From IMG/VR virus record IMGVR_UViG_2671180758_000004: a stretch of 5,835 nucleotides of DNA; one strand, given 5' to 3'. Both the position numbers and the translations under genes were made by a program. The DNA is from a virus. Taxonomy: Duplodnaviria; Heunggongvirae; Uroviricota; Caudoviricetes. Shown one piece after another: positions 1 through 3,474 of the stretch; position 1 is the stretch's first letter, and the number at the start of each line of letters is the position of its first letter. Under the pieces are notes generated by a model, which did no database searches, was not told the DNA's origin, and saw only the letters and a program-made list of their open reading frames with translations.

Positions 1-52
1 GGCGGCAGAGCAGTCACGGAGTAAAACTGATACCGCCAAACGTCACCAGAAA
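1..52 (-). ncRNA. dicF: DicF antisense sRNA, copy 1 (3' terminator U-tract lies beyond the left window edge)
   Basis: Minus-strand reading of 52..1 gives UUUCUGGUGACGUUUGGCGGUAUCAGUUUUACUCCGUGACUGCUCUGCCGCC, which I recognise from memory as DicF. It sits downstream of the ydfC-like gene as in the Qin dicB operon and is identical to copy 2 at 1633..1684. Confidence 0.75.
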
Positions 53-375
53 ATTGATAACAGAGGGCGTTGCAGCGGGGTTGTCACTTAAGCGTATGGT
101 CAACCTGACAACCCGGTGTCCTCAACGGGGGAAGGAATAACCCCGCCATACTTACCGCCGCGCCATTTCGCGGATTGCCACAACCGGAAGCGCACGGTCG
201 ACGAAAATTTAACGACAGGCTATCTATGAACCAGCTACCTCGCCGTGCGCTTTCGCGTTATGGTCTGACTTTTCATGGAAATATCCTTTCAGTAAACTGT
301 CAATGCCGGATGCTCACCCGTGTCCGGCGCACGCACTCCACCTCACCCGTGGAGAACTCCTTAATTACTAACCTT
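1..375. repeat. Direct repeat A1: DicF plus its upstream precursor/leader region (copy of 1633..2007)
   Basis: Positions 1..365 match 1633..1997 with only 2 mismatches (276 t vs 1908 g; 303 a vs 1935 g). Similarity decays over the next ~10 bp. The left boundary is not visible because the window starts inside the element. Confidence 0.9.
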
Positions 376-393
376 AGCTTTGTTGATTAGCTA

Positions 394-612
394 CTAACGC
401 GGGTATGTAATCATTCTGGCAATGCTTAATGCCGCTGCTTTTTCCAGATTGGTGATATCCTGCTCCAGAGCGGACAGATTTTCAGCCTGCTTAGCTCTGG
501 CTTCATTGGCCCATTTCAGATCCTGCGCTGCATTAATTTTCTGGTGCATCCACTCATAAAGTTCATCATCGGTATAGTCTGGCGCGATGATGACGGGTTC
601 TCGTTTCTGCAT
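394..612 (-). CDS. ydfC: YdfC-like small protein (72 aa), Qin dicB-operon type
   Basis: 72-aa ORF with GAGGA-type RBS upstream of the ATG at 612..610. Size and position (between the ydfB-like gene and the DicF leader) match the ydfA-ydfB-ydfC-dicF-dicB-ydfD operon order as I recall it. Confidence 0.75.
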   Translation of the reverse strand: MQKREPVIIAPDYTDDELYEWMHQKINAAQDLKWANEARAKQAENLSALEQDITNLEKAAALSIARMITYPR

Positions 613-641
613 ACTGATTCCTCGCGGTGCTGTTTCGCTTA

Positions 642-770
642 TCAGCCGTTAGATTTTGCCGAACTGGAAAGCGCCTGTTTAAATTCGTTGAAGCTGAGAG
701 CTTCTTCGCCTTCGGCAAGACCTTCGAAGTATTCTTCGTAAGCCTTTTCCATGATTGTGTCGAAATCCAT
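642..770 (-). CDS. ydfB: YdfB-like small protein (42 aa, MDFDTIMEKAYEEYFEGLAEGEEALSFNEFKQALSSSAKSNG)
   Basis: 42-aa ORF below the six-frame track threshold, found by manual translation. Its ATG at 770..768 lies 1 nt after the ydfA-like stop (TGAtATG), with a GGTGAG RBS-like stretch. The 42-aa size matches ydfB. Confidence 0.65.
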   Translation of the reverse strand: MDFDTIMEKAYEEYFEGLAEGEEALSFNEFKQALSSSAKSNG

Positions 771-771
771 A

Positions 772-1008
772 TCACTCACCTGAGTTTCTTTCCAGCCAGC
801 GACGGGCACCATTTTCGGTTTTAAACGTTTTGCTTTTGGTATACGTCATCGCGGTGAACGTACCGTCCTGGTTGGGAAACACGCCGTACACCAGAGATTC
901 GTTGTTGCCAAGATCGATAGTATCCATGTTGACCTCATTTCCCCTTAACGCCGGGGTAGCGGAACAAAAACCTGCTGCATAGTTATTAAAGTTGAACCCT
1001 GCCGTCAT
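772..1008 (-). CDS. ydfA: YdfA/YdaF-family (DUF1391-like) small protein, copy 1; 78 aa from ATG 1008, or 51 aa if translation starts at the internal ATG 927
   Basis: ORF conserved in two copies (see 2605..2838). The internal Met at 927..925 has a GAGG RBS 5 nt upstream and gives the 51-aa size I recall for ydfA/ydaF. The long form starts 9 nt downstream of a GAGG. Confidence 0.7.
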   Translation of the reverse strand: MTAGFNFNNYAAGFCSATPALRGNEVNMDTIDLGNNESLVYGVFPNQDGTFTAMTYTKSKTFKTENGARRWLERNSGE

Positions 1009-1080: not shown

Positions 1081-1272
1081 TTAAAGACCTGCCGGGATTT
1101 CGTTATTATCCTGGTGAATAACTTTATCGACCGGGTAACAGTTACCGGGAATTTTCTGTTCGGTTGCTGCAGTCACACACTCCTGCATTGTCCTGTGAAC
1201 ACTGACTGCAATATCAACTGGCTCTCCGGAAACAAGAAAAACTGTCAGAACAAGTGCAAATGCTGTATTCAT
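1081..1272 (-). CDS. ydfD: YdfD-like small lysis protein (63 aa) with N-terminal hydrophobic segment (MNTAFALVLTVFLVSG...)
   Basis: 63-aa ORF starting at ATG 1272..1270, which overlaps the dicB stop as ATGA (translational coupling). N-terminal hydrophobic helix. Size and position after dicB match ydfD. The longer 81-aa track ORF (to 1326) would overlap dicB and is less likely. Confidence 0.7.
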   Translation of the reverse strand: MNTAFALVLTVFLVSGEPVDIAVSVHRTMQECVTAATEQKIPGNCYPVDKVIHQDNNEIPAGL

Positions 1273-1457
1273 TGCCAGCATCCTTTTTGTATCGGACGTA
1301 AACGGGCCAGCATTGAAAGAATGCATATTTTATTTAATAGCTCCCGTTCGTGTTTTCTCTTGTTAATGGCATCTTCAGTAAATACAGGGTTACTGATAGT
1401 GACACCAATTTCAAAACAACCTTCAGACGTATTAACGTTTGGTAATAACGTTTCCAT
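1269..1457 (-). CDS. dicB: DicB cell-division inhibitor (62 aa)
   Basis: Translation METLLPNVNTSEGCFEIGVTISNPVFTEDAINKRKHERELLNKICILSMLARLRPIQKGCWQ closely matches my recollection of E. coli DicB. GAGGA RBS 7 nt upstream of ATG 1457..1455. The 97-aa track ORF is an upstream in-frame extension with no RBS. Confidence 0.9.
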   Translation of the reverse strand: METLLPNVNTSEGCFEIGVTISNPVFTEDAINKRKHERELLNKICILSMLARLRPIQKGCWQ

Positions 1458-1626
1458 TATCGCGTCCTCAACAATGAATTTTGTGATGTGGTGCCTGGTG
1501 CCTCCAGGTGACGTTAACCAGTTAACAATTAACGCCGGATACAGAGAATCCACCCATAACACTGTTTTTGGTTTTAACTGTTCCGCGTGCGCTCAGCCGC
1601 ATTCACCGCATCACAAAATTCACTTT

Positions 1627-1684
1627 AAAAACGGCGGCAGAGCAGTCACGGAGTAAAACTGATACCGCCAAACGTCACCAGAAA
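1627..1684 (-). ncRNA. dicF: DicF antisense sRNA, copy 2, complete with intrinsic terminator (GC-rich hairpin then U-tract = complement of 1627..1631)
   Basis: Minus strand 1684..1627 reads UUUCUGGUGACGUUUGGCGGUAUCAGUUUUACUCCGUGACUGCUCUGCCGCCGUUUUU. It lies between a ~320-bp leader and dicB, as expected for DicF. The exact 5' end (RNase E processed in the known system) is approximate. Confidence 0.8.
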
Positions 1685-2007
1685 ATTGATAACAGAGGGC
1701 GTTGCAGCGGGGTTGTCACTTAAGCGTATGGTCAACCTGACAACCCGGTGTCCTCAACGGGGGAAGGAATAACCCCGCCATACTTACCGCCGCGCCATTT
1801 CGCGGATTGCCACAACCGGAAGCGCACGGTCGACGAAAATTTAACGACAGGCTATCTATGAACCAGCTACCTCGCCGTGCGCTTTCGCGTTATGGTCTGA
1901 CTTTTCAGGGAAATATCCTTTCAGTAAACTGTCAGTGCCGGATGCTCACCCGTGTCCGGCGCACGCACTCCACCTCACCCGTGGAGAACTCCTTAATCAC
2001 CAACCCT
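1633..2007. repeat. Direct repeat A2: DicF plus upstream precursor/leader region (copy of 1..375)
   Basis: See A1. The right end of A2 abuts the RBS of the plus-strand 91-aa gene instead of a ydfC 3' end. Confidence 0.9.
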
Positions 2008-2604: not shown

Positions 2605-2838
2605 TCAGTCAGTGTTTCTGGTTAACCAGCGACGCGCGCCAGCTTCAGTTTTAAACGTTTTGCTTCTGGTATATGTCATCGCGGTAAACGTGCCGTCCTG
2701 GTTGGGAAACACGCCGCATACCAGAGATTCGTTGTTGCCAAGCTCGATAGTATCCATGCTGACCTCATTTCCCCTTAACGCCGGGGTAGCGGAACAAAAA
2801 CCTGCTGCATAGTTATTAAAGTTGAACCCTGCCGTCAT
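2605..2838 (-). CDS. ydfA: YdfA/YdaF-family (DUF1391-like) small protein, copy 2; 77 aa from ATG 2838, or 50 aa from internal ATG 2757
   Basis: Paralogue of 772..1008 with 6 amino-acid differences plus a divergent C-terminus. First gene downstream of the predicted early-left promoter, the position ydfA occupies relative to dicA in Qin. Confidence 0.7.
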   Translation of the reverse strand: MTAGFNFNNYAAGFCSATPALRGNEVSMDTIELGNNESLVCGVFPNQDGTFTAMTYTRSKTFKTEAGARRWLTRNTD

Positions 2839-3054: not shown

Positions 3055-3474
3055 TTAAGAGGCTTTTTGTTTTTTCTTTCGTGCTAACTCTTCGTAAATT
3101 GCATTGTACTTCTGTTTTTTCTCTTCAAGAGTTTTTAAAAGTTCATCTGTCTCACTGTCAGGGAGCTCGTCCAGAAGGTCAATGATGATTTTTTGTCTTG
3201 GATTTAACTCCTGATAGAAACGTACCTGTCCACTTTCTTCTGTATCCTCTCCCAAAAGATAGGTTGGTGTTGTTCCTATTAGTGTTGCTAATTCCCTTAA
3301 TTTCTCCCGGCGAGGAATTGTTTCGCCATTAAACCATTTGCTAACCGCTTTTGGTGTTAATTTCATTCGACGGGCAATTTCTGCCTGCCTTCCATGTTGT
3401 TCATAACCAGCATTTTCACAGGCTAGCGCAAGCCTACTGGCGAACTCTTTACGCGCTTTATCTTCATGAACCAT
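3055..3474 (-). CDS. Prophage repressor, XRE-family HTH (RacR/DicA-like, 139 aa), no S24 peptidase domain apparent
   Basis: N-terminal HTH-like segment (QAEIARRMKLTPKAVSKWFNGETIP), charged C-terminal helix, AT-rich codon usage. Divergent from a Cro-like gene and upstream of a dicB-type operon. Weak RBS, consistent with repressor genes. Confidence 0.85.
   Translation of the reverse strand: MVHEDKARKEFASRLALACENAGYEQHGRQAEIARRMKLTPKAVSKWFNGETIPRREKLRELATLIGTTPTYLLGEDTEESGQVRFYQELNPRQKIIIDLLDELPDSETDELLKTLEEKKQKYNAIYEELARKKKQKAS

Follow-up and report, generated by a model that had tools for sequence, protein, structure and literature searches.

Processing of the dicBF transcript by RNase III has been in the literature since 1990 (Faubladier, Cam and Bouche 1990, cited in PMC5069750, PMC9438474, PMC2777011 and PMC10448788). 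According to the passages of Balasubramanian 2016 (PMC5069750) and Ponath 2022 (PMC9438474) that cite Faubladier 1990, DicF has two 3′ ends: termination gives an RNA of 53 nt, and RNase III makes an RNA of 72 nt from the full-length dicBF mRNA, a length that we take from these citing papers and that rests on approximate S1 mapping. A review includes the 'dicA-dicF-dicB' intergenic regions among the RNase III substrates that it lists (PMC2777011). Table S1 of Gordon 2017 places an intergenic dicF-dicB site, marked 'Known? Yes', at K-12 position 1649470 with 0 and 0 reads in the wild type versus 26 reads in the rnc mutant, a low-coverage signal from a low-resolution method. Ragunathan 2023 reports that DicF biogenesis is RNase III-dependent and deals with just one cut, the upstream one that produces the 5′ end of a 190-nt DicF; the site 'between positions 813 and 814' named there was left unused, its numbering being irreconcilable with our coordinates.

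Two further described systems are close to this locus. STnc100, PasD1 and PasD2 are prophage-encoded, Hfq-associated sRNAs, PasD coming from EPEC. KilS (b4833) is an Hfq-bound sRNA of the Rac prophage (PMC8175672).

We analyzed a 5,835-nt stretch of a Caudoviricetes virus record (IMGVR_UViG_2671180758_000004), called the window below, in which an initial annotation had proposed a long-range RNA duplex between DicF and dicB as a candidate RNase III processing stem. We confirm that this duplex is real and conserved. We propose, with a probability of about 0.7, that it is the closing helix (P1) of a folded RNA of ~150 nt, and that RNase III cuts it mid-helix and releases the 72-nt DicF.

The dicF-dicB locus of the window

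On the minus strand, a dicA-like repressor gene (3474..3055) is followed by small ydf-type ORFs, DicF, a spacer of ~175 nt, dicB, and a ydfD-like gene. In the 261 nt around the spacer, the window matches E. coli O127:H6 E2348/69 with 100% identity and the Qin prophage of K-12 with 98%. Aligning the K-12 annotation to the window, we find that K-12 position 1649382, the annotated RefSeq 5′ end of DicF, corresponds to position 1684, and that the 53-nt DicF as annotated in K-12, terminator hairpin included, occupies 1632..1684 (minus strand). The Rfam model of DicF (RF00039) matches over its full length at 1683..1632 with 72.5 bits, above the gathering score of 48. The terminator U-tract follows at 1627..1631 (minus strand). 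The ORF translation and the RefSeq annotation of the identical E2348/69 stretch give dicB, encoding a cell-division inhibitor of 62 aa, at 1269..1457 (minus strand); its ATG is 1457..1455 and does not begin at 1456, and its stop is at 1269.

At gathering thresholds, an Rfam scan of the window returned DicF matches only, two of them. The second DicF copy (51..1, minus strand, 69.6 bits) is truncated by the left window edge. The sequences upstream of the two copies repeat at an offset of 1632 nt (1-230 versus 1632-1860), the ORFs 100..195 and 1732..1827 are identical, and paralogous ORFs of 78 aa (772..1008) and 77 aa (2605..2838) are also present. No match above 96% to the whole window was found among the complete E. 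coli genomes compared, and the best matches fall in several pieces; the tandem DicF arrangement may therefore be unusual.

Scanning 1250-1950 for promoters and terminators, we found no minus-strand promoter in the spacer. The same scan reported no terminators and is uninformative on them, because it missed the DicF terminator itself. Spacer sequence of the E. coli type also occurs in the records of Aeromonas phage AP1 (98% identity over 95% of the query) and Actinobacillus phage vB_Apl-pPE4 (86% identity over 63% of the query), which could reflect contamination, misassembly, or recent transfer.

A long duplex lies between DicF and dicB

The two 18-nt arms are GAAUUUUGUGAUGCGGUG at 1621..1604 and CACCACAUCACAAAAUUC at 1493..1476 (minus strand), and they pair at 17 of 18 positions, as the initial annotation had it. 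Its geometry also holds: the 5′ arm (1604..1621; outer half 1621..1613, inner half 1612..1604) begins at the sixth nucleotide past the U-tract (1631..1627), and the 3′ arm (1476..1493) stops 6 nt short of the dicB Shine-Dalgarno sequence GAGGA (1469..1465). The description as a long perfect duplex has to be given up, since a C.A mismatch lies inside P1 at 1608/1489. Among 122 collected copies of the module, this mismatch is confined to the window and E2348/69; K-12 has U.G plus a neighboring G.U at the same place, and most other copies have C-G and some U-A.

An inverted-repeat search of 1400-1760 (at least 10 nt) returned the arms as the sole match, with 19 nt and 95% complementarity. Allowing one mismatch at most, the longest Watson-Crick inverted repeat measures 19 nt, compared with a maximum of 17 nt in 1000 dinucleotide shuffles of this 361-nt region. 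We performed the RNA folding that had been suggested for the locus: the minimum-free-energy structures of RNAs of 158 nt and 251 nt both contain the duplex, with z-scores of -5.5 and -5.4. In contexts of 301 nt and 632 nt, all 17 arm pairs have probabilities of 0.99-1.00, so that the helix dominates the predicted ensemble.

The helix is longer than had been reported. In the minimum-free-energy fold, 1632..1622 pairs with 1475..1464 at probabilities of 0.68-1.00, with one bulged G and several G.U pairs. The 5′ strand of this basal extension, GUUUUUAAAGU (1622..1632, minus strand), includes the U-tract, which in the read-through RNA is the 5′ side of the basal helix segment and pairs with 1469..1465 at probabilities of 0.94-0.95. 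The 3′ strand, AUUGUUGAGGAC (1464..1475, minus strand), contains the GAGGA. Altogether, P1 amounts to ~30 bp with one mismatch and one bulge and has a duplex energy of -32 kcal/mol. It exceeds the length of about two turns (at least 20 bp) that is taken to define an RNase III substrate.

The region between the arms is a conserved, pseudoknotted RNA

The initial annotation described the arms as closing a loop of ~110 nt. The distance is right, as 110 nt separate the arms; what lies there is no loop or mere spacer. It is a conserved folded RNA with strong covariation that consists, together with P1, of five helices (P1-P5) and a pseudoknot. Hairpin P2 (1588..1601, minus strand; UGCG-GCUGAG-CGCA) is invariant in 75 homologues; covariation neither supports nor opposes it, because its pairs never vary. 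Helix P3 (1536..1585, minus strand) pairs 1585..1582 with 1539..1536 and encloses a region of variable length, and its innermost pair is AU in 22, CG in 9, and GC in 6 cases. Hairpin P4 (1511..1535, minus strand) pairs GCGUUAA (1535..1529) with UUAACGU (1517..1511) and shows changes on both sides in 7 of 7 pairs. The pseudoknot (1519..1580, minus strand) joins CAGUUAA (1580..1574) to UUAACUG (1525..1519) in the P4 loop; 98% of its alignment cells are paired, and 4 of 7 pairs have changed on both sides. Its 5′ partner is the segment after the 5′ strand of P3, which forms the combinations CAGUUAA/UUAACUG, AGGUUG/CAACCU, and UGGUUAU/AUAACCA. Hairpin P5 (1494..1508, minus strand; CCUGG-AGGCA-CCAGG) abuts the 3′ strand of P1, with 100% of cells paired and a middle pair that is UA in 49 and GC in 26 sequences. 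The module resembles a cloverleaf in a loose analogy only: ARAGORN found no tRNA or tmRNA in the window, and there was no Rfam tRNA match.

Homologues of the spacer are present well beyond dicB. They occur between sieB and kilR in Rac, ahead of a phd/yefM toxin-antitoxin pair in strain VL40, between tRNA genes and terB/tciA in phages P7 and D6, in a Klebsiella phage, and in at least 120 viral contigs. The initial annotation had made its claim depend on conservation and covariation of the arms in such homologues, and the claim survives: the arms covary. Across 75 distinct aligned sequences, the inner 9 bp show 99% pairing, and four of these positions have changed on both sides (GC/AU, AU/UA, CG/UA, and GC/AU). 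In a curated set (n = 46), changes on both sides are seen in 10 of the 18 arm pairs, and 92.5% of the cells of the whole structure are paired, a figure that falls to 31-42% if the partners are shifted by 1-3 columns. Neither the observed percentage paired nor the observed covariation score was reached in any of 500 shuffles. The inner helix has G.U pairs on the minus strand only (GU 17, UG 10, UG 7), which indicates an RNA transcribed from the minus strand.

The length of P1 differs between classes of the module. Every Qin- or Rac-type homologue has 21-30 bp, the window itself 29-30 bp; the Klebsiella type has 14-23 bp, with an unrelated outer sequence and some perfect duplexes of 20-22 bp. 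The class B modules and those of P1-like phages have just 8-12 bp, which argues that the conserved role of P1 is structural and that its inner stem is architectural. Some lineages have retained or gained a long stem of RNase III size, with compensatory changes, and RNase III cleavage may be a lineage-specific addition.

The module is a distant relative of STnc100/PasD

Using an E-value scan of 271 nt, we find a match to the Rfam model of STnc100 (RF02076) with 35.2 bits and an E-value of 2.3e-6, under the gathering threshold of 47; on the whole window, the score is 35.3 bits (E-value 4.7e-5). The relation is visible only in the E-value scan and not at gathering thresholds. On the STnc100 consensus structure, with its closing helix, internal hairpins, and P5 with GGAGGCACC, P1, P4, and P5 align onto consensus pairs. 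The 3′ hairpin of the STnc100 model (positions 155-206) aligns weakly over the dicB start. Reciprocally, a covariance model built from modules of the dicF-dicB type (R1) detects canonical STnc100 loci, retrieved through an STnc100 primer sequence, with scores of 28-58 bits and E-values of 1e-14 to 6e-6. The pseudoknot is retained across the STnc100 superfamily with at least six different pairs of complementary sequences; the structure line that cmscan prints for the Rfam STnc100 model shows no pseudoknot.

Shared with STnc100/PasD are the closing helix with a GGUGAAU junction, the P4 hairpin, and the loop pseudoknot, and P5 is near-identical to the STnc100 consensus (CACCGGGAGGCACCCGGCACC). 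The module differs from STnc100/PasD in the sequence of P2, in apparently having no 3′ terminator part of its own, and in a much longer closing stem. Its location is also different: it lies in the early-left operon, flanked by an sRNA terminator and a kil-type gene, whereas STnc100/PasD lie near Q, stx, or lysis genes. The literature searched gave no link between STnc100/PasD and dicF or dicB. The dicF-dicB RNA thus looks like a distant, sub-threshold relative of STnc100/PasD, and both this identity and the pairing with toxic genes look new.

The copy number of STnc100-type modules varies between loci. One locus (L131, 2314-3362, minus strand) carries four of them in tandem within ~1.05 kb, each with a covarying pseudoknot sequence of its own, and several other loci have two copies.

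Proposed RNase III processing within P1

Counting 72 nt from the DicF 5′ end (1684), the length given in the citing papers, leads to position 1613, nine nucleotides into the 18-nt 5′ arm (GAAUUUUGU^GAUGCGGUG). We infer the placement of the cut inside P1 from this arithmetic, which does not come from a mapped figure. The site 1649470 of Gordon 2017 maps to ~1596 in the window, 8 nt 3′ of the 5′ arm, just inside the junction and outside the arm. The initial annotation was right that RNase III acts here, insofar as the dependence and the 72-nt product are published, which is indirect support; it was wrong to treat the stem as a new candidate. Most likely, P1 is the cutting site of this operon that has been published since 1990.

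The sequence of events can be pictured as follows. P1 would close the ~150-nt RNA that fills the dicF-dicB spacer, an RNA made of P1-P5 and the pseudoknot and distantly related to STnc100/PasD, and it would form only in transcripts that continue past the DicF terminator. The helix of this lineage would extend for ~30 bp from the terminator U-tract to the dicB Shine-Dalgarno sequence, a length at which it should be a substrate of RNase III. The enzyme would cut the 5′ arm after 1613, about halfway along the 18 bp. Staggered cuts of RNase III leave 2-nt 3′ overhangs; by this rule, the second strand would be cut between 1483 and 1482, giving a dicB mRNA with its 5′ end at 1482. Cleavage would free the 72-nt DicF and part it from the dicB mRNA, and, if both strands are cut, a core RNA of ~130 nt (1612..1483) would come free as well. 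Cleavage would further replace the intramolecular clamp on the Shine-Dalgarno sequence (-32 kcal/mol) by a weak bimolecular duplex (-13.9 kcal/mol), so that dicB translation should be favored, as far as the folding energies can tell. The exact cut positions in P1, the second-strand cut, and the effect on dicB expression are what we infer; the helix, its dominance in the folding, and its conserved covariation come from our analysis, and the RNase III dependence and the 72-nt product from the literature.

A long hairpin also lies upstream of DicF at 1817-1887 (minus strand), with arms at 1887..1875 and 1829..1817 that can be extended to ~24 bp and a loop of 45 nt. The RNase III-made 5′ end of the 190-nt DicF (Ragunathan 2023) falls by arithmetic at ~1821, in the 3′ arm of this hairpin, so that DicF would be flanked by two duplexes of RNase III size. 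The region 1690-1830 was also considered as a degenerate second module; neither the Rfam E-value scan nor the R1 search found one, and an ordinary long hairpin is present there.

Predicted sequestration of the dicB Shine-Dalgarno sequence

In the read-through RNA of the window, the predicted unpaired probability of the dicB Shine-Dalgarno sequence is 0.01-0.02, and it rises to 0.2-0.7 once the 5′ arm is missing or cleaved. In K-12 Qin, the corresponding values are 0.19 with and 0.80 without the 5′ arm. Folding of the Rac homologue places the Shine-Dalgarno sequence just outside the helix, with an accessibility that is independent of the 5′ arm, and the helix of the Klebsiella-type and P1-like modules likewise leaves it out. 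The dominant predicted fold pairs it in the window and K-12 Qin and not in Rac. The folding suggests that cleavage activates dicB translation. The coupling to dicB translation or stability raised in the initial annotation is a prediction, and for translation it applies to Qin-type loci and not to Rac.

Alternative explanations

P1 might be just the architectural closing stem of an STnc100-like RNA, its extra length being incidental and the published RNase III cut lying elsewhere or having no function. The inner 9 bp are universal while two module classes have just 8-12 bp in total, a purely structural helix would covary as well, and the peak of Gordon 2017 (~1596) lies outside the arm. We nevertheless consider this distinctly unlikely: the inverted-repeat search left the DicF-dicB interval with no other duplex of RNase III size, the 72-nt length known from the citing papers falls at the center of the arm, and two lineages with unrelated outer sequences have kept at least 20 bp with compensatory changes. 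The 130-nt core (1612..1483), excised by cuts on both strands, might be a stable RNA in its own right, with the release of DicF as a by-product. Its relatives STnc100 and PasD accumulate as Hfq-dependent sRNAs of 80-240 nt, its loop sequences are invariant across very different phages, and its pseudoknotted fold is conserved. On the other hand, the 3′ hairpin of the canonical STnc100 model (positions 155-206) here falls on the dicB start, and no paper found in the literature search reports an sRNA from the dicF-dicB spacer, which leaves us doubtful of a stable core RNA.

The extended helix might mainly silence dicB translation in the read-through RNA, its Shine-Dalgarno sequence being paired with the U-tract until RNase III, or melting by a ribosome or helicase, releases it. 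Loss of the 5′ arm is predicted to open the Shine-Dalgarno sequence (0.01-0.02 to 0.7 in the window, 0.19 to 0.80 in K-12), and small toxic genes, those for DicB, KilR, and small hydrophobic peptides, have their start codons 27-40 nt downstream of the module. DicB itself is toxic. The Rac Shine-Dalgarno sequence, outside the helix and indifferent to the 5′ arm, and the Klebsiella-type and P1-like modules, which do not include it, speak against such a role, and the 18-bp bimolecular duplex could persist after cleavage; silencing as the main function is therefore possible and somewhat on the unlikely side. A role of the inverted repeat as DNA (a protein-binding palindrome or a recombination site) or as part of a coding sequence is highly improbable, and we reject it. 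Any inverted repeat is a DNA palindrome too, and an in-phase upstream ORF does exist: 97 aa with a GTG start (1562..1269, minus strand), in frame with dicB and overlapping the 3′ half of the structured module. However, G.U is tolerated on the transcribed strand only (the other strand would have A.C), the compensatory changes preserve pairing and not sequence, and the arms are 110 nt apart with nested helices between them that also covary. The lengths of the elements range from 161 to 187 nt and differ by non-multiples of three, and the module precedes unrelated genes. The covariation thus argues that the upstream part of the 97-aa ORF is RNA structure rather than coding sequence. A closing helix cut mid-way by RNase III, with release of the 72-nt DicF, remains the reading that we prefer.

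The module forms a cassette with small toxic genes

In 122 elements, the next gene starts 27-40 nt past P1. It encodes DicB in ~56 cases, KilR in ~18, and TerB/TciA in ~6; the remainder codes for small hydrophobic peptides of 35-78 aa or, in a few cases, other proteins. After class B modules comes a DicF-like sRNA instead. The cassette takes the form of DicF-dicB, of KilS-kilR, of tRNAs and tciA, and of small hydrophobic peptide genes in Klebsiella phages.

The Rac prophage of K-12 (NC_000913.3, 1417800-1419400; locus 452-770, minus strand) has the order hairpin, KilS, module (133 bits with R1), and kilR, in which KilS is the Rac paralogue of DicF and the hairpin is the homologue of the Qin upstream hairpin. 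Table S1 of Gordon 2017 holds an unflagged 'kilR-sieB' candidate RNase III site at 1418510, with 0 reads in the wild type versus 41 in the rnc mutant. We considered it as a cleavage of the Rac P1 and discarded it, as its position falls in the hairpin that immediately precedes KilS and not in P1.

Another locus (L010, 8018-8370) carries a short-P1 class B module after a sieB-like gene, followed by a DicF-like sRNA with its terminator. Straight after the U-tract of this sRNA and just before the next gene lies a different long inverted repeat (ACAAAACAGAGAAGA ... UCUUCUCUGUUUUGU). The design of sRNA terminator, long duplex, and gene therefore recurs with unrelated sequence.

We regard the fold and the cassette as well supported. 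More tentatively, and at somewhat short of even odds, we suggest that the spacer is an unrecognized member of the large, pseudoknotted, cloverleaf-like STnc100/PasD superfamily of phage RNAs, placed in an early-operon cassette of sRNA plus terminator, module, and small host-killing gene. If this is true, the module would gate or process toxin expression, or act in trans after excision by RNase III.

Discussion

The RNase III interpretation of the dicF-dicB duplex is right in substance and was published before; our analysis adds that the spacer is a pseudoknotted RNA with covariation, related to STnc100/PasD, and that it makes up a cassette with small toxic genes. The spacer is not filler: it is a conserved RNA that immediately precedes small toxic genes in phages of several unrelated types. 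Because two cell-division inhibitors, DicF and DicB, come from one prophage transcript, their separation and dosing decide host filamentation. With the RNase III step assigned to a defined, covarying helix, mutagenesis has a precise target. STnc100/PasD is a multicopy family of prophage RNAs, and the K-12 locus, with filamentation and reporter read-outs, offers a tractable way into its role.

The published dicBF processing site and the window agree in the operon, in the intergenic region, and in an RNase III cut downstream of DicF in the read-through RNA; the window differs from K-12 by its strain variant C.A in place of U.G plus G.U. KilS-kilR parallels DicF-dicB in its upstream hairpin, its sRNA with a terminator, its module, and its FtsZ-directed toxin gene, and it departs from DicF-dicB in the Rac 3′ arm, which has a bulged A and a U.G pair. 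No RNase III processing has been described at KilS-kilR save the low-coverage match of Gordon 2017 upstream of KilS.

More distant parallels exist in the early-left RNase III sites of phage lambda (the N leader and cIII) and in the excision of rRNA by long flanking stems, where duplexes between distant segments of a polycistronic RNA are cut. The lambda cIII case is also mentioned in PMC2777011. The dicF-dicB duplex has no sequence relationship to the N leader, cIII, or rRNA stems, it closes a pseudoknotted RNA of several helices, and its effect on translation is a prediction; in common with them, an RNase III cut would separate functional RNAs or alter the translation of the next gene.
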